From: Squalus acanthias
Taxonomy: Eukaryota
Direction of reading: 5' to 3'
DNA: 64,000 nt
Assembly: GCA_030390025.1 (NCBI GenBank)
Contig: CM059431.1
Location: forward strand, 138,696,001-138,760,000
Positions 36,285-64,000 of the stretch are shown piece after piece. The translations under genes were made by a program, and so were the position numbers. A model generated the notes under the pieces. It was given only the letters and a program-made list of their open reading frames with translations, was not told the origin of the DNA and did not search any database. Each line of letters opens with the position of its first letter. Position 1 is the first letter of the stretch.

Positions 36285-39200
36285 TTTTACATTACTGGTG
36301 GAGACCCTACTCTAACATTACTGCTGGTGTCACTACTCAAACATTACTGGTGGTGACCCTTTTCTAACATTACTGGTGGTGAACCTACACTAACATTACT
36401 GGTGGTTACTCTACTCTAACATTACTGGTGGTCACCCTACTCTAACATTAATGCTGGTGACCCTACTCTAACATTACTGCTGGTGACACGACGCTGCCAA
36501 TAATTGTGTTGATCCTACTGTAACATTCCAGGTGATGACCCTATGCAACATTACTGAAGTTGAGCCTACACTCACAGTACATGTCATGAATCTAGGCTAC
36601 TAAAGCTGGCAGTGATTGTACTCCTACATTATTAGTGCTGATCCTGCTGTGAAATTACTGGTGGTGAACCTGATCTAACATTACTGGTGGTGAACCAACT
36701 CTAACATTACTGGTGGTGTCTCAACACTAACATTACTGGTGGTGACCCTGCTCTAACATTACTGGTGGTGTCCCTTCTCTTACATTACTGGTTGTGAACC
36801 TGTAATAACATTACTGGTGGTATCTCAACTCTAACATTAATAGTGGTGAACCTACTCTAAAATTACTGGTGTTGACCCTACTCTAACATTACTGATGGCG
36901 AACCTAAACCAACATTATTGATGGCGAACCTACTCTAACATTACTGCTGGTGTCTCAACTCTAACATTACTGGTGGAGTCTCAACGCTAACATTACTGGT
37001 GGTGAATCCACTCTAACATTACTGGTGGTGAACCTGCGCTAACATTACTGGTGGTGACCCTACTGTAACATTACTGGTGGTGCCTCAAGTCTAAAATTAC
37101 TGGTGGTGACCCTACTCTATCATTACTAGTGGTGACCCTACTCTAACATTACTGCTGCTGAACCTGCTCTAACATAACTGGTGGTGTCTCAACTCTAACA
37201 TTACTGGTGTTGACCCTACTCTAACATTACTGCTGTTGAACCTGCTCTAACATTACTGGTGTTGTATCAACTGTAACATTACTGGTGGTGACCCTACTCT
37301 AACATTACTTTTGGCGAACCTACTTTAACATTACTGGTGGTGTCTTAACTCTAACATCTCTAACATTACTGTTGGTGACCCTACTCTAACATTAATGGTG
37401 GAGAACCTACGCTAACATTACTGGCGATGACCCTCCTCTATCATTACTGGTGGTGACGCTATTTTAACATTTCTGGTGGTGACACTACTCTAACATTACT
37501 GGTGGTGACTATAATCTAACATTACTTTTGGTGACCCACTAACATTACTGGTGGTGACCCTATTCTAACATTACTGATGGTGACCCTACTCTATCATTAC
37601 TGTTGGTCACCCTGCAATAACATTACTGGAGGCGTGCCTAGTTGAAATTAATGGTGGTGACTCTACTTTTTTTATTAATGATGGTGGCCCTACTCGAAAA
37701 TTACTTGTGGTGACGCTACACTTACACGACAGTTGTTGATCCTACTCTAACATTAATGGTGTTGACCTTACTCTATCATTACTGGCGGTGAACCAACTCT
37801 TATATTACTGATGGTGACTCTACTCTAACATTAATGCTTGTGACCGTATTCGAACATTATTGGTGGTGACTCCACTCTAACATTACTGGTGGTAACAGTA
37901 CTCTTACGTTACAGGTGCTGAAACTACACTAACACAACTGATGGTGACACTGCTCTAACATAGCTGATTGTGACCGTAACCTAAAATCAATGGTGGGGAA
38001 CTTAAACTAACATTACTGATGGTGACTTACTGTAGCATTGCTGTTGGTGGAACTACACTAACATTACTGATGCTGACACTGTACTAACATTGCTGATGGT
38101 GAATCCACGCTAACATTATTGGTATTGACCATACCCTAACATAAATGTTGTCGTGTCTCTACTCTAGCATTACTGGTGGTGATTCGACTCAAACATTACT
38201 GGTGGTGAACCTACTCTAACATTACTGGCGGTGACCCTTCCATAACATTACAATGATGACCCTGCTCTAACAATACTGGTGGTGACTCTACTCTAACATT
38301 ACTAGTGGTAACGCTATGATAACTTTTATGGTGGTGATTCTACTCTATCGTTACTGGTGGTGACCCCACTCCAACATTACTGACAGTGAACCAATTCTAA
38401 TACTACTGGTGGTGAGCCTATGATAAATGTACTAGCGCTGACACTTCTCTAACGTTAATGGCGGTGATCCTACTCCAACATTACTGGTGGTGACCCTACT
38501 CTAACATTACTGATGGAGACCCTACTCTAACATTACTGGTGGTGAAACTACTTTAACATTACTGTTGTTGACCCTGGTCGAACATTACTGGTGGTGACGC
38601 TACTCTCACATTACTGGTGGTGATCCTACTGTAACATTACTGGTGGTGACACTACTCTAACATTACTGACTTTGACACGGTGATTACATTACTGCTGGTG
38701 ACACTACTCTAACATAACTGGCGCTGTCTCGACTGTAACATTACTGATGATGACCCCACTCTTACATTACTGGTTATGGCCCTATCCTAACATTACAGGT
38801 GATGACCCTACGCTAACATTAATGAAGTTGATCGTACTTTCAGTGTACATGTCAAGAAACTAGTCTAACATTACAAGTGGTGAACCTACTCTAAAATTAA
38901 TCTTGATATCCCAACTCTAACCTTACTGGTGTTGATCGTACTATAACGTTACTGTTGGTGACCTTACTCGAAAGTTTCTCCTCGTGAAACTAATTTAACA
39001 CTACTGATGGTGACAATTCTCCAACATTGCTGGTGGTGACCGTGATTTAAAATTACATTTGGTTACCCGACTCTGACATAACTGATTGTGACCCTTCTCT
39101 ATCATTGCTGTTGGCGACCCTACTCTAACATTATTGGTGGTGAATCTACTCCAAATGGTGGTGACCCACACTAACATTGCTGGTGCTGACTGCACTCAAA

Positions 39201-39910
39201 CATTACTGGTGGTGACTCAACTCCAACATTTCTTGTTGTGACCCTACTCGAACCGTTACTGGTGGTGAAACAACTCTATCATTACTGGTGGCGACCCTAC
39301 TCTAGCAATACAGTTGTTGACCCTACTCTAATATTATTGGCGGTGATCCTACTCTAACATTACTGGTAATGACTTTACTTTAACGTTACTGGTGGCGAAA
39401 CTATCTAACATTACTTGTGGTGTCCCTGGTTTAACATCACTCTTGCTGAACCTACTCTAAAACAACTGACTGTGACCCAACTCTAACATTCCTAGTGGTG
39501 ACCCTACTCTAACATTACTGGTTGTGACTGTATGATAACTTTACTGATGGTGATCCTACACTAACATATATGGTAGTGATCCTTCTGTAACATTACTGCT
39601 GATGCCGCACTCTAACATTACTGGTGGCTTACTTTACTCCAACATTACTGCTGGTAACTCTACTCTAACATTACTGATGGTGACACTATTCCAACATTAT
39701 TGGTGGTGAATCTACTCTAACATTATTGGTGTTTACCCTGCTCTAACATAACTGATGGTGACCCTACTCTATCGTTACTGGTGTTGAAACTACTCTAACA
39801 ATTCTGTTCGTGAACCTAGTCTAGCATAACTGATGGTGACCCTACTCTAACATTACTGATGGTGACCCTATTTTACATTACTGTTGGTAAGCCTATGATT
39901 AATTTACTGG
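36285..39910. repeat. 26-bp minisatellite array, left block
   Basis: Unit TAACATTACTGGTGGTGACCCTACTC with diverged variants. Confidence 0.97.
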
Positions 39911-43300: not shown

Positions 43301-44957
43301 TACATATTTGCTCTGCCTTCCAGGCTGACTTGTTTTTTCCTCTATATTTGGCTGTGCATCACCCTCTACTATAGCTCCACTCCGTTTCCCATCCCTCTGC
43401 CAAGTTAGTTTAAACCACCCCCCTTAAACAGTACTAGCAAACTTCCCCGCAAGGATGTTTGTCCCGTTCCGGTTCGGGTGCAACCCGTCCGACTTGTACA
43501 GGTCCCAACTTCCCCAGAAGCAGACCCAGTGATCCAGGAAACTAAAGCCCTCCCTCCTGCACCAACTCTTTAGCCACGCACTCATCTGCTCTATCGTCCT
43601 ATTCCTATACTCACTCGCACGTGGCACCGGGAGTAATCCAGAGATTACAAAATTTGAGGTATTACTTTTTAATCTGCCACCTAGCTCCCTAAATACTTGT
43701 AGCAGGACCTCATCCCTCTTTCTACCCATGTCGTTGGTACCAATGTGAACCACGACCTCTGACGGTTCGCCCTCCCCCTTCAGAATGCCCTGCAGCAGTT
43801 CAGTGACATCCTTGACCCTGGCACCAGGGAGGCAACATACCATCCTGGAGTCACGTCTGCGGCCACAGAAACCTCTATTTGTTCCCCTTACGATAGAATC
43901 CCCTGTCACTATTGCTCTTCCACTCTTTTTCCTCCCCTCTTGTGCAGCTGAGCCACTCGTAGTGCCACAGACTTGGCTCCTGCTGCATTCCCCTGAGAAA
44001 CCATCTCCCCCCGCAGTATCCAAAAAGGAAAATCTGTTTGAGAGGAAGATGTACGCAGAGGACTCCTGCACTACCTTCCCAGTTCTTTTACTCTCTCTGG
44101 CGGTCACCCATTCCCTGTCTGCCTGTGCACTCTTTACCTGCAATTTGAACCATCTTGTTAAACGTGCTATCCATGAAGATCTCAGCTTCGCGGATGCTCC
44201 ACAGTGACTCCAGCCGCAGCTCCAGCTCTGAAACACGGATTTCGAGTAGCTGCAGCTGGAGACACTTCCTGCACATGTGTTCGCCCTGGACACCTAAAGT
44301 TTCGCTGAATTCATACATAGCACAGGAGGAGGACTCCAGGCTGCCGAGCTGCCCTGCCATGTCTTACCCTTAATTTGCACCATTTACTGCCTTTAAATTA
44401 AAGAATATTAAATACACTAGGAACCTTACTTCCCTTGAACCACTACTTACTCTAAACTAGAGACCTTACTTTTACTTTAACGACTGGAATGTAGAAACAC
44501 TGTAGAAATACTCACCGCAGGTTCTCTGTCCCCTGTTGTGCAGCTTTTTAGCGCCTGCTCTCCTGGAAGCTGACAAAGATAGAGAAAGAAAGGAACACCT
44601 CCCTCCCCTACTCCCTCACTCACCAAACTAGCAGCTTACCACTCTGTTCCGATCTGCACTCTAGCTTCCCTTATTTATACTGCTGAAATTTAAGTAAGTG
44701 AGCTCTCTGGCAGTTACTGAACCAGATTAGACCAGTTAATTAATTAATTGCTCTCACCTGCTCTCCAGCACAGAGCTTGCTTAGCCCTGCCCAAGCCTGG
44801 AAGAAACTTAAAACTTGAAACAGTACATTTCAATTTATGTTAAATGCTAATTGCAAGCATACAAGACAAGATTGTATATAAAAAAAGAGATTAACCTTTA
44901 AGAATCACTCCCTCACTCACCAAACTCGCAGCTTAACACTTTGTTCCGATCTGCACC
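40393..44957 (-). mobile_element. Near full-length, degenerate CR1 LINE (different subfamily)
   Basis: ORF1 remnants 44360-43410 (CRKCLQLQ, GDSIVRG, HIGTND, DGLHP); ORF2 RT 42407-40737 (GVPQGSVLGP, KFVDDTK); CTATGA-type tail; duplicated ~50-bp 5' UTR block at ~44610 and ~44907. Confidence 0.93.
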
Positions 44958-45017: not shown

Positions 45018-46070
45018 TTAACACTACTGATGGTGACCATTCTCCAACATTACTGGTGGTGATCGTGAATTAACATTACTGTTGGTGACCCTACTCTAAC
45101 TGAACTTATTGTGACCCTACTCTGTCATTGCTGTTGGTGACCCTACTTCAACGTTATTGGTGGTGAAACTACTCCAATATTAATGGTGTTAACCCCACTC
45201 TGTTATTATTGGTGTTGAGCCAACTCTAACATTACTGATGGTGTTCCTACTCTAACATTACTGGTGTTCGCTCTACTCTAACATTACTTTTGGTGAACCT
45301 ACTCTAACATTACTGGTGGTGACCCTACTCTAATATTACCAGTGGTGACCCTACTCTAGCATTACTGGTGGTGACCCTACTCTAACGTTACTGATGGTGA
45401 TACTACTCTATCATTACTGGTGGTGACCCTACTCTAACATTACTGTTGTTGACACCACTCTAATATTATTGGCGGTGATCCTACTCTAACATTACTGGTA
45501 ATGACTCCAATCTAACGTTACTAGTTGCGAAACTATCTAACAATACTTGTGGTGTCCCTGGTTTAACATTACTCTTACTGACCCTACTCTAACACAACTG
45601 AATGTGACCCTACTCTACCATTCCAAGTGGTGACCCTACTTTAACATTACTGGTGATGACTCTATGATAACGTTACTGATGGTGATCCTACAGTAACATA
45701 AATGGTAGTGATCCTTCTGTAACATTACTGGTGATGCCCCACTCTAACATTACTGGTGGCTTACTTTACTCTAACATTACTGCTGGTAACTCTACTCTAA
45801 CATTACTGAAGGTGTCACTATTCGAACATTATTGGTGGTGACTCTACTCTAACCTTACTGTTGTTTAGCCTGCTCTAACATAACTGGTGGTGACCCTACT
45901 CTATCGTTACTGGTGTTGAAACTACTCTAACATTACTGTTGGTGAACCTGGTTGAACAATACTGTTCGTGACCCTACTCTATCATTACTGGTGGTGATTC
46001 TACTCTGACATTAATGCCGGTGAACCTACACTGACATTACTGGTGGTGACGCTGCTCTGACTTTAATGGC
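45018..46070. repeat. 26-bp minisatellite array, right block
   Basis: Same unit as 36285-39910; ends abruptly at the LTR. Confidence 0.95.
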
Positions 46071-47204
46071 TGTAGGCTTCGCAAAATCCCCCAGAAACTC
46101 GAACAGAGCCCTAAATGGAGTGATTTTTGGACTTTTCATACAAACTTGGGATGATGGGACCTCAGTGAAGTGATTTGATGTAAAAACCTAAAGATCACAA
46201 GAAGAAAACCTGAGGAAAATGACTTTTCGAATCTTACTGGGGAAAGACGCCTCCAGAGACACACAGGCTGCAGTGGGGCGTGGCCAGGCAGTGCAGTAAA
46301 CTGTCGACAAAAAAAACCTCACAAACACATTCAAATATGGATCCCCAGGGGCAAACAAAATGCTGGAAATCGAAAAACGATTCAATGACAATATAAAACC
46401 GATCACACAGTTTCATAGCCATTATCCCATCCAAAAAAACAATCAACCAGGTATCCAGAGAAAAGTTTTAAAAGCCCGCCAACAGAAGGACAATAGAGTG
46501 AAGATTTGGCACGTAGATAAGGCGGTGTTTTATTCGGAAAGCGATTAACACTAAGCAAAAACCATCGGAGCTGGCCAGCACGCCAAAAACGAGACAAAGG
46601 GTCATTTACATTCAAAAAGGAATTCGTTTTAGTAGGGGGTTTTGAGCGCGAAAATGGATACAGTATAATTTGAAAGCCTGGGCCATAATCTCTCTCTTTT
46701 CGGACTGACTACCACGCAAACACAGCTCTCTCTCCTTGCTCCAGCAAAACTTACCACAAGCCACGAGGAATGAGGCCAGGAGATCAGCACGCAAGAAGAA
46801 TCCAGAGCGACTGCCACAGTGGCCATCAGACACCTCGCAGCACCAAGGGCCTTACGGAGTCCTTTTAAACAAAAAGACTCTAAAATTCTGTCAAGGACTC
46901 GTTGGTGAGCATTATCCCTGATCTCCTGAAACCAAAAACCTAGCCAGATAGTGGGATATTTGGGAGGGATAAGGTTTTGTTTGATATATTGTCATTTCCC
47001 TCGCTTCTACCGTGTGTTCCTCGAATCTGTGTTTTAAGTAATAAGTGTGTTTCAAGTTTGTTACCTTTTTCTTTCAATAAAGTAAATTTCTTTCATCAGA
47101 AACTGTTTACTGCAATTTTGTTCACAATCCCTAAATAAGCCCAAAGTCTAGGAACCGGAGGGGTGTTGGTCGATTCGAACCGCTCACTTAAGATACCCCT
47201 TACA
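46071..47204 (+). repeat. 5' LTR (1134 bp)
   Basis: Starts TGTAGG, ends CTTACA; GC box, TATAAT at ~46665, AATAAA at ~47076. Confidence 0.95.
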
Positions 47205-47206
47205 TA

Positions 47207-49029
47207 ATGGCGACTGCGGCAGGACTTTGGCGAAAGGGTTGTGAAGCAGTAAATGCTGGTTTTGAGGAGATAACAAAAATGGAAGAGAGGATGTCATCCT
47301 ATGTATATAAAAAAGTAAATATCACCAAGAAATGGGTCCTCAGGCTGTTGCATGCTGAACGTCCTATGAACGCTGCAGCTGCATGGACTGAGAGCAAGGA
47401 ATACACTACGTCTGTGGAGAAAGCCAGATGGTTGGTCTGCTCCCAGAAACAAACGCATCTTATGGGGAAGCGCATTCAGGCTCTCACAGAAGAGCTAAAG
47501 GAAGAAAGCCAACTGTCCCGTGCCAGAGCTATAGCAGGGGATAGGTTGTTAGCAGAGCTCGGCACAAAAGATCAGGAACTGTCACAGATGCTGGAGGAAC
47601 ACCGTGCCAGTAAGGGATACCGCCAGTGTCAGGCCACCGAGGCCAAAAGTAGTGAACTGGCATTGCGGGAAGAGAACACCCGCCTTGCCAAGCAATTAAG
47701 GGAACTCACAGAGAAGTTAAACGATGTTCAGGCAGCCTATAGAGTAGCCAGTACAAGGGAGTTTGAGGTAGGGGACCACGGCCCCTGTCAGAAGCAGATT
47801 GAGAGTCTGAACCTTGCTCTGTCCAAGACGAAAGGCATGCTGTGCCTGATAAGTCCGGGTGCGGCCAGGGCAGACCTGGAAGGGCAGGGGGAGACTGTTC
47901 GATCACCACCTGTGGCGCCAAGGAGAAGCTTGGTTAGGCAGCAGGAGGTGCAGACAATCTGTGAGGCTGACAGGGACTGCACACCAGCACCTGTGGCGCC
48001 GAGTTTTGACTCGGTCTGGCAGCAGGGAGAGGGGGGCGAATCGATGCAGGAGAAGTCGGAGCCAGGGCCAATGTGCCGAGCACGACAGGAAAAATTCGGC
48101 CCGCCCGCCGGTGGTGGAGGTCAGGGACCCCTTGAAAGTCAATTCTTGACTCCCCACGGTACACAACAGCTTAGGGCTATGGTAAGCCACCTGAGTAAAC
48201 TTACCCAAAAGGAAGACCCCTCAGTCCACTTCATGGAGGTGGAACAATCAGGAGCCATTAACGATTGTGACAATGCCGAAATGGCAAAATTGCTGCTGTT
48301 CTCATTAGATGGCAAATTGTACCAGTCACTCTCTACTGAGAGCAAGGGAGGACAGACCGGGTATGCTGCCGTAAGGGAGGAAGTATTAGAGGCCATGGGA
48401 ATGACTGAGGGAAGTCCTTTCTCCCGGGTGGAGGAAACAGTGCAGCTCGCAGGGGAGACCGCACAGACTTTCGCAGACAGGCTGTGGCCGGTGTACAGGG
48501 GTGCTTGTAATGGGGCTCTCGACAGGGCTAACCTGAACCGGGACGAGCTGGCCCACTGGCTCCGTAGCCTAGTGGCAAACAGCTTGCCACGAGTCAAAGC
48601 CAAGGCTGAGCTTTGGTTTGACCCAAGAGATCCCCGGGTCACCGAGGAGGCAGTGGTCAGGCAACTGACCCTAGCCTACCGGAAGGGTAGGGGAGATGAA
48701 GACACCCCACCGAAAGGGAAGGTGCATGTGATAAAGCCCAGTCAGGATAAGAAGGAGTTGCACCAGGAAGGTGGTAAACCTTCCGACACGAAGCGTCCTG
48801 TTTCGGGTGCGGGAAGACTGGGCACTGGAGAAAGGACTGTAGGAATCCCTGGAAGGATAGCCTAGCAAATAAGTCCCCAACTCCTGCCCCAAAAGTAGAG
48901 GCTCTGACCTCTTTCCCCACACTGGACACAATAGTAGCGGCCATCAGCGTCCTGTTTGATGGCCCAGGGAAGGTGGCTACAGCCACTGGTGCTCTGATCC
49001 CATCTTCCCCATTCAACCCAGAGGCATGA
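47207..49029 (+). pseudogene. gag: gag (coiled-coil N-terminus, capsid-like region, CCHC knuckle); one frameshift near 48790
   Basis: 552-aa ORF from 47207; CFGCGKTGHWRKDC at 48799-48840 in a shifted frame that stays open to TGA at 49027-49029. Confidence 0.85.
47208..47224 (+). promoter_or_regulatory. Primer-binding site, tRNA-Ser-like
   Basis: TGGCGACTGCGGCAGGA three nt after the LTR; 13 of 17 match to the complement of the tRNA-Ser(AGA) 3' end TGGCGTAGTCGGCAGGA. Confidence 0.65.
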
Positions 49030-52000
49030 CTGGAGCTAGCACAGCCGGTCTACCTGTGTCCCCTCGAGTATGATGCCTGGAAGAGACCGCATGTTAAGAT
49101 GGAGGTAGAAAAGGTAGAAGGGAACTATCTGTTAGACACAGGAGCTTCGAGCACCCTCATTTATTCAGATAACCCAGCCACTTCACCTCTGTCTAACGGG
49201 GTCCCGTACAGCCTTGTGGGATTTACAGGTAACGAGCAGGCTGGCTCATTCTCCATCCCGCTGTCCATTCATTTGGGAACGCTCCACACCAAGTGGACCT
49301 GTGTCCTAATGAAGTGGGAGCAAGAAGTGAAGGGGATCCTGGGGGCCGACTTTATCACAGGCCACAGGATTTTAGTGGATTTAAGGAACCACTGTCTATG
49401 GGGAGCATGTACCCAAAAGGGTAGTGAGGTAGCAATCATCCCGGAGGCACAAGGCAAGGGGACCTTGTGCACAGTAAAACCAAAGGAGGGTTACGACCTC
49501 GAACTCATGGTCAGTCACACTCCAAGGGAGTACCAGGCATTTGTGCAGGAAAACCTCGCAGCATTTGCCACTCACAAGCACGACTGTGGGAGGGTAACCG
49601 GGGTCGAGGTTAGTGTAAGTGGGGACCCCATGAACCGCCCACCAAAGCAGTATAACTTCCCCAGGGAAACTTAGACAGACTTGGAATAGGCTTTTACTTT
49701 TTAAGTAAAGCAGGGGATATTGAGACCTATAGTTACCCACGTGAAAACCCCACTGAGGCCGGTTAGAAAACCAGACAAATCTGGAGGGCCACAGTAGACT
49801 ATCGAGTACTCAACCGAAACATCCCCGCCTGTGCCCCCACGGTTGCAGCCGTAGCCGACCTCATTGGAAGTATCCCGGCATCTGCGACCACCTTTACAGT
49901 GCTGGATATTTCCAACGGGTTCTGGTCCATCCCTCTAAGGAGAGAGGATCAGTACAAGTTCGCCTTTACATTTAAAGGCCAACAGTCCACATGGAACTGT
50001 CTGCCCCAGGGCTACCACAACAGCCCAAGCATGTTTCCCCAATGTATGGTGAATTGCTTGAATGACTTCAGCAGGCCCCGTCAGCTTGTCCAGTATGTGG
50101 ACGACCTACTCCTCTTTACCGATGAGGGAGAGGAACATGGTCCCCTTCTGGAAGAACTGCTGGAACTGCTCAGGCAAGAGGGCTTTACGGTAACCCCCAA
50201 GAAGGCACAGATTGGCCAGCGGGAAGTCAAATTCCTGGGCCTGGCTGAGCGAGCAGGGAGAGGGCCATTGACAAAGCTAGAAGGGAAGCAGATCAGGAGT
50301 TACCAGCCCCCAACACAGTTACAGGGGTAAGGTCTTTTCTAGGGCTAACTGGGTACTGCAGAGATTTCATTGAGGATTACGCAGCCACAGCAGCCCCTCT
50401 GCTCCGACTCCTACACAAGGGAGTGGAGCGGGTTTGGGATGAGGGTTGCGAGGCTGCCTTTGTGAAACTCAAGAGAGATCTGCAAACCGCACCGGCTCTA
50501 GGGGCCATTGATGGAGGGGTAGAGTTTTTCCTGGAGGTAGCAGCCAGTGGGGACAGTCTGAGTACAGTGCTGCTCCAAGAGAGGCATGGCAAGCTGAGAC
50601 CAGTGTTTACTTCTCCAGAATACTCACTGATGTGGAGAGGAGCTACTCCAACTGTGAGAGGCACCTCCTAGCCGCTCACTGGGCTGTGAAAAGATCATTG
50701 ATCTTCACAGGAACCTCTCCCATCACACTCCTCACTCACCACACGCCCACCCAGATGCTCTTGGATGGGAGAATTAAAGATGGGACAGTGAGCAGTGAGC
50801 AGTGCCCGCATTGCTCGCTGGACCCTGCTTCTCTCACAAATGGATCTGAGGGTAAAAGTTCTCTGCGAGCCAAAGCTCGCAGCAAACATGATTTACTCAG
50901 GGACAGCCCACCGGAGTTCCGTTGAAGGGGCATGGGAAGTCAACATAGGTTTGCGAGCTGGGATACACCCCACAGGCCGCGAAATCTATGTGGACGGTTC
51001 AAGCACAGTATCAGCTGGCAAACGACCCACAGGGTGTGGGATTTATGACCCAGAGGCAGGCATTGCTCTGGCAATCAAGCTCCCCAGCACCATGAGTGCC
51101 CAGCAGGCTGAACTGTCTGCGGTGGTGTATGTAGTCACACACCCCAAGGAATTCCCTACCCCATACACGATTTGCTCGGACAGCATGTTCACATGCAATT
51201 CGTGTACAGAGTACCTGGCCATCTGGTCCCTTCGTGGATACACCTCCGCCGATGGGAGACCCCTGGCCATCAAGCCTCTGTTGGAGAAAATCATGAAATC
51301 AGTAGGGGAGGAAGGTAGGGTATACATGCAAAAGGTGAAGGCCCATTCCAAGGTAAAGCCCCGCGCAGAGGGCAATCACCAAGCCGACATGCTGGCCAAA
51401 GAGGGCGCCAGTACAGGCACGTTGTGGGATCCATATGGATCAAACCCGGTAGCAGCAATCAGAGGCAGAGGAGGGACCCAAGGGAGTGCAGGGGTAGCAT
51501 TGACCCCGGACCTAAAGACGGTCCAGGCACGGGATCCCATCCTAAAAACTGTCCCGGAAACGCTGGCTACAGGGGAGAAGGTAGAGGGCCCTTACGGCGC
51601 AGCAGCCATCACCCGCAAAGAAGGGATGCTGTTCAGTGGGGAACAATGGGTAGTGCCGCAGCAGCACCGAAGGGAATTCCTCCAACTGACCCATGAGGGT
51701 CCAGGAGCGGGGCATCCCGGGACTGAGACTACTTGGCAGCAGGTGGAACAGGCAGGATGGTGGCCAGGACTGATGGAGGATGTCCGCGAGTTCTGTGCAG
51801 GCTGTCTGGTGTGTGCTGCTAACAACCCTGAGCCACAGAAAAGGAAGGTATCTATGGGACACATCAGGAGGGTAGAGGGACCATGGCAGTCGACCCAGGT
51901 TGACTACATCGGGCACCTACCCACCGCTCAGGGTGGCTACAAATACTGCCTAGTCCTGGTGGATGTGTTCTCAAAGTGGGTGGAAGCTTTTCCATGTCGA

Positions 52001-53194
52001 ACAGCTACCGCTTTGGGTACAGCCAGGATCCTGGTCAGGGAAGTGTTCTCACGATGGGGACTCCCACAGTAAGTGGAGTCAGACCAGGGGAGTCACTTTA
52101 CTGGGCAGGTCATGCAAGAGACCCTCAGGGTACTCGGCATAGAAGGGAAATGGCACGTCGCCCACAACCCACAGTCATCAGTGATTGTGGAGCGTTTAAA
52201 CCGTACCATCAAAGAAAGGCTGCGAAAGGAGATGGGAGACTCACCCAAAAAGTGGGTAGAAGCCTTACTGTTGGTCCTAATGGGGATCCGGGCCAGCCAG
52301 TCAAAAAGCACGGGGTATTCCCCACACCAGCTCATGACTGGCAGGATTATGCGGACCCCCACCCATGTGCTAGCCCCGGTGCTCACGGAAGGGCAGCTCA
52401 GGGAGTTGAAGCGGGACAGATTCGTCAGGAATCTGTTGGACCACCTTAAACAGGTCCACTGGCAGGCTGCGAGTAACATGGGAAAACAGCATCGGGGTAA
52501 CCGATTGCTGCTGGAACCCCGCAAGCACCACGAGTGGGAGGTTGGAGATCAGGTCATGGTGAGAAATTTTGCTCGGGTAGGGAGTTTCGAACCATTGTAG
52601 ATGGGGCACTACAACATTGTAGACAAGGCAAGCCCCATGGTCTATGCCATAAAGATGCCCCGCCGTACAAAGTGGTTTCACATCAACCAATGCAAACTGT
52701 TTAAACCTAAAAGGGAACAGCCGCCAAAGCTGGATGGCCCCCAAGTTAGAAATCCTCAGCCTGCCGCAGCTGTGGCAGACGCACAAGCTGCAGCGGGAGG
52801 GACAGTGCGTTGTCTCACAGGAGAGGTCACTCCACCGATTATGTGGGACTCAAGCACACCCCCAGTGGCCAGAGCCCTAAGAAGGTCTCCCCGCACACCA
52901 CAGCAAAGGCTACTGTGGCCACAGGTGTATCTGTTTAGAGGGTCCCACCCAAAGAGGGTTGCAACCCGAAAAAGAGCGCCCAAGAGCAGGGAGCGTCCTA
53001 AAGTTGGGGATTCTCAGCCTACAGCCTCCAACAGTGAGGGTTTCACAGGAGAGGTAGTACTGGAAGAAGAAGAGAGAGAAGGGTCCCCCGCCCGCAGCCT
53101 CCGGCTGGGAGGAGCCCACAGATATGAACGAGGGCGCTGCAGCCACACAAAAGGGGGTAGTCTGCTGCAGCACAGGACGCAGCTGGGATGTTAA
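49030..53194 (+). pseudogene. pol: pol (protease, RT, tether, RNase H, integrase) with stops and frameshifts
   Basis: LLDTGAS/ILGADF; LDISNGFW, LPQGYHNSP, YVDD; tether FFLEVAAS..CERHLLA; RNase H YVDGS, AQQAEL, SDS, KVKAHS, GNHQAD; integrase HHCC, VDYIG, SDQGSHF, ERLNRTIK. Confidence 0.92.
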
Positions 53195-53499
53195 GATACC
53201 CCCAGCGGTTTTGAGGAAGGCCTTCTGTGTCCGGCGGTACAGGCCGCACTACACCCAGGTGTACAAGCCATCCAGAGGCCACATAAGGCAGAGACTAAAC
53301 AGGATTTAACCTGGCCGTCCGGAGACGGGCGGCAAATGTACAGAATTTTTCGGTTTTAAGTAATTGCAGTTTTGGTGGTTATGGTTATCACTAGTTTAGT
53401 TGTTTGTAGAGTTTTTTTTAATTTTAAGGGCTTGATTAATTATCCAGCCAGAGAACCTTTCTGGGACATGGATATATGTTTTGTGTGTGCCCCTACAGA

Positions 53500-55862
53500 A
53501 TGGACTTCGGGATGACAAGGTTTCTGCTCCTGCTCGCCCTCGTAGGGGTGAGCATCGGTGACCGAGGTGACGTGGAGGACTCCCACATCTATGAGTGCTC
53601 AGGAGTGAGAGCACCAGTCGTCACCACAGGGGGTGGCGAGCGGGGAGTGGAGGAGCTCGCCATCTACTTCCACGAGGGAAGGTGGCCAGGGTGGCTGGGG
53701 TCCAACTCTACTAAATACTCCAACCAGCCCGGGTTCACGTACGGGGAGGCCTCCCTCCCATGCCCCAGAATACAGGTCGTTGCCACAAGGGTCAGTGTCA
53801 CCGAGGGGAAGCGTGTGTGCCTTACCTGTAAGGGACGAATTCCTTGAATAGGTGGTGGTGGCTCAGGAAGCTGAGCATGGACGCAGGGGACAATACAGCC
53901 GACTGGGAAAGATTAGGGAACGACACCCACCGGACAATCACAGGGACCCAAGGAGGAGTTAGTGTTTGTTGGGATAAGTGGTGGGTGTCGGAACAGGGAG
54001 TCTATATTTGTATGTGGGGATCAGAGGAATCCTGCCCCAAAGGGGTATCCATCATCATCTCCAGCCAATGGAAAGATGCCGGGGAGGGGATAGGTTGGGA
54101 TTCTAGCCTGCATGGGTGCGTGGTCCCACACATTCCGATCCCAGTTAATGCCACTGAACTCGTGGCACACACCCGAAAGCCCCTACCCACGACCCAGGTA
54201 CCGAAACCCTGGAAGAAAAGTGCCCTACCCACGACCAAGGGACCAGGGAATGGGTTAGTCCTAGTACCAAACGAAAAGGTACTATACCAGGGGGTACACT
54301 ATGCAGTAGCTTCAGTAATATTAAACCTTACCGAGGTATACTTACCTGAGTGGTGTCCTAAGGAGACGGAGCAGCTGTACCTGGCCCTGCTAAAGGAAAT
54401 GTTTTGAAATTTTACGAATTTGGTTTTGCCAATATAGACAAAGTAGAGCTATACAGAATACACACTGATAACCCTATGGGCACGGGTAGACAAATAAGGG
54501 GAGCCTGGAATGATGTCTTCACTGCCTACAGTACAGGGTCCTCTGTAATAAATAGCCTGGATGAGATGGAATTACAGACACAGATAAATGGTTTAAAACC
54601 CAGTTAAGAAAGATCCTGAAGGATGGGAACACAGTGGTAGGCTCAGAGCTACATGAGGACCAAGCTATGACGGTTCATTTAAAGGAAATTATTGCAGAAT
54701 TGGAAAGGCATGCCAAAACAGTAAATGCACTGATACGGGAGGATAGGAATGCATCGGATCAGGCTGCACAGAATGAGGTGCGTGTGCTGTACGGGGCATG
54801 GTTGCTGGGCGAGGGCCCTAGCAACCTGGAGGATTTAAAGCAAGGTTTAGTCCCCTCCTGGATCAGCAACAAGCACCTTGCAGCCCTCCACCCGTTTAGT
54901 AATTCGCTGAGCCCATGCCAATTTCGACTAGCCTCTGAAGTCTACCCTGTCCCAATAGATTGTGGGCGTTCAAATCACACTATCATGGGGATAGTAGTGA
55001 GAATGCCGGTCATGAGTGGGACAGCCCGACCCGTACCGGTATATAGGGTGGAGAACATTGGAGTCATTCAAGGGGGTGCACACATCCGTTTTACAGCGGT
55101 CCACCTTAAGTCATAAAGTGGGAGCACGCCATGACAGGTACTGACCTCTCCGGGTGCCGGAACCGTGGTTCACACATAATACTGTGTCCCCAGCACTTGA
55201 ACGCCTATTCGAAACCACAGTGTGGGTTTAAAGCTGCTGGCGCACGACCTATCAATTGTACCATGGAGGTGATGGCACACGGCCATGTTTCCCCACAGGT
55301 AACATATATAGGGGGTGGGACATATTGTGTCACCACAGGTGCGTCCCACTACCAGCATGGACACTTCTGGTGTCCGGTAAGTGACAGCAGTTTCTGCTTT
55401 AAACCCGAGGCAGAAGTTCAAGTGGCCCAGGAACGGATTGTCCCCATTCCTGAACCCTCCACTGTTCACCTCACTGTAACAGAAAACATAACCAACCTGC
55501 AAAAGTATGTGACTTACTTTGGATATAAAATTCCCCCACTACCCGAACATCTTACCATCCTACTTAAAGCTGTAGAGATTTCACAAAAACATTTCTACAC
55601 CCTGGAACAGAAAACAGTTGAAATAGGGGCAGAGATTTTGGATATAGTAGTTCCACCCTGGTGGGATATTTTCGGGAATATAGAGGTCCCGTCCTGGATC
55701 AGGATGGCTTTCCATCTTTTGGTGGTCTGCCAGCTCGGGATAGTTCTCTACCTGCTGTGTACAAAGTGCAGGGGAAGGGACGGGGAGCTCCGCTCCAGAC
55801 ACGAAGGGACTTGTGAAGTGCATCAGAATAAAGGCTATGGCCAGGGATGGAACGAACCTTGA
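53500..55862 (+). pseudogene. env: env-like class I fusion glycoprotein with Ig-like domain; four frameshifts
   Basis: Splice acceptor ...CCCCTACAG just before the ATG; signal peptide MDFGMTRFLLLLALVGVSIG; RQIR cleavage-like site at 54488-54499; heptad region; Cys-rich block; TM WIRMAFHLLVVCQLGIVLYLLC. Confidence 0.82.
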
Positions 55863-56137: not shown

Positions 56138-56148
56138 AAAGTGGGGGA
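56138..56148 (+). promoter_or_regulatory. Polypurine tract
   Basis: AAAGTGGGGGA immediately before the 3' LTR. Confidence 0.8.
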
Positions 56149-57241
56149 TGTGGGCTTCGCAAAATCCCCCAGAAACTCGAACAGAGCCCTAAATGGAGTG
56201 ATTTTTGGACTTTTCATACAAACTTGGGATGATGGGACCTCAATGAAGTGATTTGATGTAAAAACCTAAGACCACAAGAAGAAAACCTTGAGGAAACTGA
56301 CTTTTCGAATCTTACAGGGGAAAGACGCCTTCACAGACACACAGGCTGCAGAGGGGCGTGGCCAGGCAGTGCAGTAAACTGTGGACAAAACCAAAAAAAA
56401 ATCACAAACACATTCAAATATGGATCCCCAGGGGCAAACAAGATGCCGGTAATCTAAAAACGATTCAATGACAATATAATTTCGATCACACAGTTTCATA
56501 GCCATTATTCCATCCAAAAAATACAATCAATCAGGTATGCAGAGAACCGATTTAAAAGCCCGCCAAACAGAAGGACAATAGAGTGAAGATTTGGCGCGTA
56601 GATAAGGCGGTGTTTAAATCGGAAAGCGATTAACACTAAGCAAAAACCATCGGAGTTGGCCAGCCCGCCAAAAACGAGACAAAGGGTCATTTACATTCAA
56701 AAAGGAATTTGTTTTAGTAAGGGGTTTTGAGCGCGAACAAAGATACAGTATAATTTGAAAGCCTGTGCCATAATCTCTCTCTCTTTGGACTGACTGGCGA
56801 CGTGAACACAGCTCTCTCCCTGCTCCAGCAAAACTTACCACAAGCCACGAGGAAGAAAACCAGCTCGCAAGAAGAAACCATAAGGGCCTTCCGGAGTCCT
56901 TTTAAACATAAAGACTCTAATATCCTGTCAATGACTCGTTGGTGAGCATTATCCCTGATCTCCTGAAACGAAAAACCTAGCCAGATAGTGGGATATTTGG
57001 GAGGGATAAGGTTTTGTTTCATATATTGTCATTTCCCTCGCTTGTACCGTGTGTTCCCCGAATCTGTGTTTAAGTAATAAGTGTGTTTTCAAGTTTGTTA
57101 CCTTTTTCATTTAATAAAGTAAATTTCTTTCATCAGAACCTGTTTACTGCAATTTTGTTCACAACCCCTAAATAAGCCCAAAGTCTAGGAACCAGAGGGG
57201 TGTTGGTCGATTCGAACCGCTCACTTAAGATACCCCTTACA
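56149..57241 (+). repeat. 3' LTR (1093 bp)
   Basis: Starts TGTGGG, ends CTTACA; collinear with the 5' LTR with substitutions and a ~45-bp net deletion near 56850-56880. Confidence 0.95.
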
Positions 57242-57720
57242 GTTATTAAAGATTGTGTCCCAACGAAGCCATTTAGTGAGGAAACTATAGATAGTCCAAA
57301 CGGAACAGTGGCACAGCACAGCAGGTGAGCAATTGGAGGCGGTCACAACAAATTAAGGCCAGCAAAGAGCAGAAGTTCCTGCGTATAAATTCTCAGCGAG
57401 ATGTGGCCTGGACCCAGCCATTACATCACGATCAAGTCTTCAGCAAGGCGGCAACAATTATTAGTCTTCTGCAAAAAGAACAGTCAACCTTTGAACACTC
57501 CTCAGATTGCAGAAAGCCTACTTCCGTCCAATCCTGCCCAGACTTCATAGAGCCTGGTGCGCCCTGAGTCAGACACACATCAAAGGGCCGCAAATTATCG
57601 AAAACTGAGCTAAAAGGACAATGTGTTGTGCCCCATGCTATATTTACTCAAACAGTCTGCACATCCATGGATCCAAACCCTGGAAATAAAGTTCATTAAA
57701 CTCCACCAGAGATACTTGCA
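57242..57720 (+). repeat. Dispersed or long-period repeat, copy 1 (copy 2 at 63558-64000)
   Basis: GTTATTAAAG..TGTGTC, AGCAAAGAGCAGAAGTTCC, TATAAATTCTCAGCGAGATGT, CAGACACACATCAAAGGGCCGCAAATTATCGAAAA shared. Confidence 0.88.
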
Positions 57721-63557: not shown

Positions 63558-64000
63558 GTTATTAAAGTTTGTGTCTTAACACAGCGATTTAGAGTCGAAA
63601 CTAGAGATAGTCCAAAAAAAGAAATCACACAGCAGGCGAGGATAGAGTTACTGTCAAAACAAATCAAGCAAAGAGCAGAAGTTCCGGGTATAAATTCTCA
63701 GCGAGATGTCGTCTGGACCACTCTATTACATCACGATCAATTCACCAGCAAGACGGGAATAAGAGTGCGTGCTCTGCGAAAAGTTACAGTCAAACCTTGA
63801 ACATCCCTCAGGCTGTAGAAAGCCTACTTCTGTCCAATCCTGCCCAGTGTCCATCGAGCCTGGCGCGCCCTGATTCAGACACACATCAAAGGGCCGCAAA
63901 TTATCGAAAACCGAGCTAAAAAAGTCTCCCTTGCTATATTTGCTGAGACTGTCTGCAAATCTGTGGAATCCAAACCACGGAAATAAAGCACTTTAGACTC
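63558..64000 (+). repeat. Repeat copy 2 (matches 57242-57720; runs off the window)
   Basis: Collinear with the sequence right of the 3' LTR. Confidence 0.88.

Follow-up and report, generated by a model that had tools for sequence, protein, structure and literature searches.

Envelope proteins (Env) resembling the fusion protein (F) of paramyxoviruses and pneumoviruses have been described in lokiretroviruses (PMC7947760; PMC9040795), foamy viruses (PMC11468914) and errantiviruses (10.1101/2023.10.26.564294). In lokiretroviruses, similarity of Env to paramyxovirus and pneumovirus F occurs together with a dual RNase H (Wang and Han 2020, PMC7947760), and the same paper left open four scenarios for the origin of the retroviral env gene. 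In a structural scheme of 2024, orthoretroviral Env forms subclass Ia and only foamy Env is placed in subclass Ib (PMC11468914). In this study, a stretch of 64,000 nucleotides of Squalus acanthias (assembly GCA_030390025.1, contig CM059431.1, positions 138,696,001 to 138,760,000, forward strand; hereafter the window) was analyzed, which contains an endogenous retrovirus (ERV) with a long, broken env gene. The element is probably a dead ERV of cartilaginous fishes with a predicted F-type (subclass Ib) Env and a canonical-retroviral reverse transcriptase (RT), likely related to snakehead retrovirus (SnRV), and env has probably been swapped in one of two lineages.

The env gene runs from an ATG at 53500 to a stop codon at 55860-55862 (about 787 codons). 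It is broken into five pieces by four frame changes, near 53845, 54405, 54595 and 55110, and its landmarks are therefore spread over different frames. The window copy is unable to make an Env protein in its present state. The parts of the gene are as follows:

53480..53556, + strand: pyrimidine tract and AG resembling a splice acceptor, then the env ATG (53500) and a hydrophobic signal peptide (sequence; hydropathy 1.73)
53557..54240, + strand: N-terminal arm, with a possible immunoglobulin (Ig)-like module (~53770-54030) and a Pro/Thr-rich linker
54241..54487, + strand: F2-equivalent segment upstream of the cleavage site (family profile against lokiretrovirus Env from residue 28 on)
54488..54499, + strand: R-x-x-R cleavage-site position (RQIR), aligned with the RPKR site of lokiretrovirus Env
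54500..54562, + strand: putative fusion peptide, placed after the site; amphipathic, not strongly hydrophobic
54655..54838, + strand: long helix, equivalent to heptad repeat A (HRA), mapped from helix 51-112 of the model of a relative
54840..55460, + strand: beta-rich head, equivalent to domains III/I/II, with seven conserved cysteines at 55155-55397
55548..55700, + strand: second helix, equivalent to heptad repeat B (HRB), and Trp-rich membrane-proximal stretch, mapped from the same model
55704..55862, + strand: transmembrane (TM) helix, short tail and stop codon (hydropathy)

The RQIR site (54488), the GAWND...SLD peptide from 54500, and the DLSGC (55143), YCVTT (55323) and CFKP (55395) motifs that a sequence-only reading of this DNA had pointed out were all located, as were the Trp-rich stretch (near 55660-55700) and the TM helix (mean hydropathy 2.26 over 19 residues). 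Its estimates of about 200 residues from the cleavage site to the Cys-rich block, about 450 residues after cleavage and about 790 residues in total agree with the counts of 214 codons to DLSGC, ~453 codons and ~787 codons. The proposed cysteine spacing x9-x11-x12 was correct for the first two spacers, but the third is x11. Likewise, the long heptad region corresponds to a helix in the relative's model, as does the second such region, but a rough count shows a hydrophobic heptad pattern of only moderate strength (9/14 and 8/13 hydrophobic in the best register versus 23/50 and 22/45 overall). The CX6CC and LQNR..LD (immunosuppressive domain (ISD), CKS-17) motifs, whose absence that reading had stated, are lacking in all five env pieces and in 10 of the 10 relatives checked.

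Conservation among relatives supports the significance of these landmarks. For the seven ectodomain cysteines, retention among ungapped relatives is 16/17, 17/18, 17/18, 19/19, 19/21, 19/20 and 19/20, so the cysteine block is beyond chance. In the window copy, the cleavage site is no more than a minimal R-x-x-R; a full basic furin-type motif stands at the matching place in 8 of 10 relatives, another carries a weaker basic motif, and the remaining one begins downstream of the site. Close named relatives of this Env occur in sawshark, skate, sevengill shark, horn shark, catshark and bamboo shark, and a distant one in a frog. Among the 24 sequencing runs listed, 19 contained a fraction of 0.24-0.47 of the env words, and no RNA run was recorded among those containing them. 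Three relatives, from bamboo shark (P0007, GCC29952.1), a Pelodytes frog (P0010) and P0021, are uninterrupted F-type Env-like proteins of 723-749 amino acids, 24-30% identical to the window; they may represent genes that have been co-opted, or else young proviruses from other lineages. Env fragments are also annotated inside three shark host proteins (P0001, P0011 and P0038; cadherin-related, an fbxo15 isoform and Niban-like), which reflects either exonisation or artefacts of gene prediction.

A fold was predicted for a natural relative that spans the whole post-cleavage subunit and is 59-72% identical to the window pieces; the confidence of this model is modest (pTM 0.32). Among the Foldseek matches listed from the PDB, which is biased to human pathogens, 33 of 34 were paramyxovirus or pneumovirus F and one was foamy-virus Env (best E 2e-6), and none of the 34 was an orthoretroviral TM protein. 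This is in line with the sequence-only proposal of an F-like rather than a retroviral fusion subunit. The top solved structures were F of human metapneumovirus (hMPV), measles virus, respiratory syncytial virus (RSV) and parainfluenza virus 5 (PIV5). The order of features in the model (HRA, beta-rich Cys head, HRB, TM) matches that of F structures, with modest scores. The predicted fold of the post-cleavage subunit is the F-type (subclass Ib) fold of class I fusion proteins that paramyxovirus and pneumovirus F, foamy Env and lokiretrovirus Env have in common. Long helices and generic beta sandwiches in a poor model are very unlikely to account for this likeness, because the helix-free head alone matched F proteins only (41 of 41 among the matches listed), and a sequence-profile link to lokiretrovirus Env, and on to Fusion_gly, is independent of the model.

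The sequence-only reading took a long F1 subunit with an internal Cys-rich domain to be characteristic of Mononegavirales F, which did not hold. In both structure searches, foamy-virus Env and hMPV F share the place of best match; glycoproteins of invertebrate viruses equal or outscore paramyxovirus F in the viral model library; and F-type proteins of errantiviruses and baculoviruses score equally and are the best language-model neighbour (0.94). Env models of two walleye epsilonretroviruses are also among the F-type matches listed from that library (walleye epidermal hyperplasia virus 1, WEHV1, E 2.7e-3; walleye dermal sarcoma virus, WDSV, E 5.8e-3), and epsilonretrovirus Env may also belong to subclass Ib. 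SnRV Env was not among the best 50 matches listed from the library, and nothing on its fold turned up in the literature searched.

The origin of this Env was further addressed by sequence comparison. The family profile aligned with natural lokiretrovirus Env over 351 columns (hhalign 97.9%), with the cleavage site and Cys block in register, and the frog protein P0010 gave a single alignment with the lokiretroviral loci L038 and L040 running across the cleavage site. The F2-like segment, which is not part of the fold model, aligns to the N-terminus of lokiretrovirus Env by sequence, while pairwise BLAST of the pre-cleavage piece against lokiretrovirus Env gave no significant match. No F family was found by direct Pfam scan in the five env pieces or in 21 relatives, and no F protein by phmmer (two env pieces against the PDB) or by profile searches. 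The sequence-only reading had proposed shared ancestry with RNA-virus F or capture from it; shared ancestry is the best reading, whereas no result singles out capture from a paramyxovirus or pneumovirus. Direct capture of env by the window lineage from such an RNA virus would fit the top solved structures, but it is highly improbable given the lack of sequence similarity to F beside clear similarity to lokiretrovirus Env, the scores of the invertebrate-virus glycoproteins and the bias of the PDB. The presence of homologous Env in shark, skate and frog proteins also argues against it and points to an old retroelement family. An old membership of a wide F-type family, rather than a recent paramyxovirus capture, is thus the best explanation of this Env.

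The affinity of pol was examined in RT trees (a quick tree of 71 rows and a careful tree of 39 of these, without redundant rows and the long-branch L065). L006, L041 and L042 were excluded for want of an RT motif, and SnRV, ERV-L, foamy-like ERVs (FLERVs), Odin and lentiviruses were not included. The lokiretrovirus references were three fish loci recognised by motif and by their own Env; one foamy locus was confirmed, and the other reference types were labelled from motifs. In both trees, the window and seven relatives grouped with canonical retroviruses, apart from lokiretroviruses and the outgroup (100/99). The family fell outside the mammalian foamy clade (100/100) and outside the gamma, epsilon, alpha, beta and delta groups (99/95). 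In approximately unbiased (AU) tests with the three lokiretrovirus rows, a clade with lokiretroviruses was rejected (p 0.0023 and 0.0028), and a sister relationship to foamy viruses was not (p 0.19).

A lokiretrovirus was the first reading of the element and was dropped, as the lokiretrovirus RT motif is lacking and the RT tree and AU test exclude that clade. A lokiretrovirus in a new host class would share the gene order, the dual RNase H and the homologous F-like Env; moreover, the best named RT matches are coelacanth NYNRIN-like proteins, and the lokiretrovirus integrase is CGIN1/NYNRIN-related (PMC7947760). It would be a range extension, as lokiretroviruses were found in 0 of 6 chondrichthyan genomes (PMC7947760). 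However, the dual RNase H (tether and RNase H) is common to all retroviruses and not diagnostic. The RT is identical to that of natural lokiretroviruses at only 34 of 86 residues, and Env is 15% identical. The window RT motif is not in the lokiretrovirus supplement as far as this was searched (PMC7947760). We consider a lokiretrovirus quite unlikely. Three near-complete fish lokiretrovirus-type proviruses (L038, L040 and L043) were also noted in the metagenome collection, likely as host DNA in assemblies.

A divergent foamy-like ERV (clade Tu), with an F-type Env inherited vertically with foamy viruses, would need no swap on the window side. The best PDB matches of the RT are foamy Pol (4.8e-31 versus 2.2e-22 for the murine leukemia virus (MLV) type), and the tie of foamy Env with hMPV F and the AU result are also compatible with it. 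Against this, the family stands outside the foamy clade, and over 86 RT residues the window shares 53 with CmiERV-I (by hand) and at most 37 with foamy viruses. Foamy viruses are not known to carry a CCHC knuckle in Gag, and they have a separate pol and accessory genes (tas/bet) after env. The window Gag has a CCHC knuckle, a single stop codon separates its gene from an in-frame pol, and the 276 nt from the env stop to the polypurine tract leave no room for tas/bet. Nor is there a large insert between F2 and F1, where the foamy receptor-binding domain (RBD) sits (PMC11468914). A foamy-like origin is therefore unlikely.

The RT of the element is likely to be of the SnRV-like (class III) lineage, an affinity traced indirectly, through the elephant-shark element CmiERV-I. 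A gag in frame with pol over one stop is found in SnRV, although also in gamma, epsilon and lokiretroviruses; in SnRV, readthrough of a UAG stop has been reported (PMC13517186). No SnRV or close kin was recovered from the viral contigs searched with the RT alignment and RT motif. The nearest published Pol relative found is CmiERV scaffold 2 of elephant shark, translated by hand from the supplement of PMC4422223; its lineage, CmiERV-I, clusters with snakehead retrovirus (Han 2015, PMC4422223). Like the window element, CmiERV-I has a cartilaginous-fish host and gag in line with pol, and it shares 53 of 86 RT residues, motifs upstream of and within RT, and 13 of 18 bases of the primer-binding site (PBS). 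In contrast, its Env is short and gamma-type, with an ISD and CX6CC, whereas the window element has the 787-codon F-type Env. A close Pol pair in cartilaginous fishes with different Env subclasses indicates that one lineage likely replaced its env. A swap of fusogen class between F-type and gamma-type Env is thus likely. Evidence that this pol and this env belong together comes from the window provirus and from P0018, a single record with gag and env pieces.

The N-terminal arm distinguishes this Env further. The part before the cleavage site has ~333 residues, compared with 116 in lokiretrovirus Env, and is thus ~215 residues longer; the arm is 54-56% identical to a skate protein (P0002). An Ig V-like pattern is visible by eye, the distant relative P0021 has a weak V-set match (E 0.045), and another relative is named 'Ig-like domain-containing' in UniRef. 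A PDB sequence search with the arm of the skate relative found no match. Atlas features of the truncated arm piece match surface subunit (SU) fragments of gamma type (TLV_coat, 0.96), and the gamma RBD-C is IgV-like (10.1101/2024.03.17.585361), which makes a retroviral-SU origin of the arm a lead. A receptor-binding role of the arm is a guess, in keeping with the lack of a separate attachment gene.

Based on the predicted fold, on knowledge of the F family and on PMC11468914, the following course of events may be suggested. An intact Env would be made from a spliced RNA, as the acceptor-like tract suggests, led by its signal peptide, and would assemble as a trimer in which a furin-type protease cuts the basic site. 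The short F2-like segment would remain part of the head, and the N-terminal arm would likely do the work of a separate attachment protein by binding the host cell. After a trigger, the first helix may extend, carrying the fusion peptide into the target membrane; folding back of the second helix may then form a six-helix bundle.

The provirus that carries env is ~11.2 kb long on the + strand, with gag, pol and env all broken. Its other features are as follows:

46071..47204, + strand: 5' long terminal repeat (LTR), TG...CA, 1134 bp, a direct repeat with the 3' LTR
47208..47225, + strand: PBS-like 18-mer, 13 of 18 bases matching the PBS position of CmiERV scaffold 2 (by eye)
47192..49029, + strand: gag, split over two frames, containing a CCHC zinc knuckle (zf-CCHC E 1.1e-4)
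49030..52705, + strand: pro-pol, broken; protease, RT, tether (degenerate RNase H), RNase H and integrase
56138..56148, + strand: polypurine tract, read from the sequence
56149..57241, + strand: 3' LTR, TG...CA, 1093 bp

The primer for the PBS-like 18-mer at 47208..47225 is presumably tRNA-Ser. The gag gene ends in a single TGA (49027-49029), and its position suggests stop-codon readthrough into pro-pol. Pfam matches in pro-pol were RVP, RVT_1 (4e-31), RT_RNaseH_2 (1.5e-9), RNase_H (8.1e-21), Integrase_H2C2 and rve. The gap of ~800 nt between integrase and env (52700-53480) holds short, Cys/His-containing ORFs (the tail of 52601-53194, and 53058-53309) with no Pfam match beyond the SH3 end of integrase; an accessory ORF, as in SnRV, could lie here. 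The two LTRs differ at 62 of 1083 aligned columns (89% by BLAST with gaps; Kimura two-parameter distance, K2P, 0.06). No target-site duplication was found around the provirus (46059-46070 versus 57242-57318), and the LTR divergence was therefore not used for dating. Sequence on the 5' side is a 26-bp satellite (45019-46069), and that on the 3' side is a different repeat, which recurs at 63558; the provirus ends probably derive from separate insertion sites, through recombination or deletion. In inverted orientation, the ten bases flanking the provirus on one side match those on the other at 8 of 10 positions, possibly by chance. Elsewhere in the window are a satellite array of 139 copies of 26 bp (36289-39895) and, on the minus strand, an SGNH esterase ORF (Lipase_GDSL_2, 43424-44293). 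Such an ORF is typical of ORF1 of long interspersed nuclear elements (LINEs).

The link between F and retroviruses is known, and shared ancestry has already been published for lokiretroviruses, foamy viruses and errantiviruses, so this inference is not new; what is added here is the distribution of F-type Env across Pol lineages. No publication that reports an F-type Env for an SnRV-like ERV or for a shark ERV was found by a search that lacked a cartilaginous-fish foamy ERV paper, a 2024 spumaretrovirus cryoEM paper, the full lokiretrovirus supplement and the bioRxiv supplements. It is also unstated in passages of PMC12440569, 10.1101/2023.10.17.562709, PMC6001957, PMC12583693, 10.1101/2024.03.17.585361, PMC12193657, PMC13517186, PMC13709493 and PMC10699275. 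In the last of these, a 'spuma' ERV of a catshark is described for which no Env was recognised; this ERV may be the window family.

With an F-type Env beside this Pol and a gamma-type Env beside that of its nearest published relative, the two elements would provide a close pair spanning a change of fusogen class, and a direct handle on the ancestral Env. A wider proposal, to which we give slightly less than an even chance, is that the window represents a third lineage (SnRV-like, neither foamy nor lokiretroviral) with an F-type Env and its own N-terminal receptor-binding arm, and that close relatives within it exchanged whole fusogen classes. If this is true, lokiretroviruses and foamy viruses, the two deepest branches, being also F-type, a paramyxovirus-like fusogen would likely be the ancestral retroviral Env, later replaced by gamma-type. 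The arm would also exemplify, in nature, the addition of a receptor-binding module ahead of a minimal F scaffold.

In comparison with known systems, the window element shares with lokiretroviruses the LTR-gag-pol-env order, the tether and RNase H, and an Env with the F-like hallmark, while its RT lies outside their clade (AU p 0.002) and its fusion peptide is less hydrophobic. Foamy Env (Fernandez et al. 2024, PMC11468914; PDB 8rm1) likewise shows an F-like fold in a retrovirus, but its RBD is inserted between the subunits, whereas the extra module of the window Env is N-terminal, as PMC11468914 describes for coronavirus spike; the Gag/Pol organisation and RT of the window are also not foamy. 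Errantivirus and baculovirus F-type Env (PF12259; 10.1101/2023.10.26.564294) shows that F-type Env occurs on LTR elements; however, errantiviruses are Ty3/gypsy elements of invertebrates, and the window Pol, with its dual RNase H of the retroviral kind, falls among retroviruses. Finally, F of paramyxoviruses and pneumoviruses (PF00523; 7m0i, 8utf, 3rrr, 4gip) has the same predicted order of fusion peptide, HRA, beta-rich Cys head, HRB and TM in an F1 of ~450 residues, but with 8-18% identity in structural alignments and no direct sequence match, and the window Env differs in bearing an N-terminal arm and in residing in an LTR provirus.
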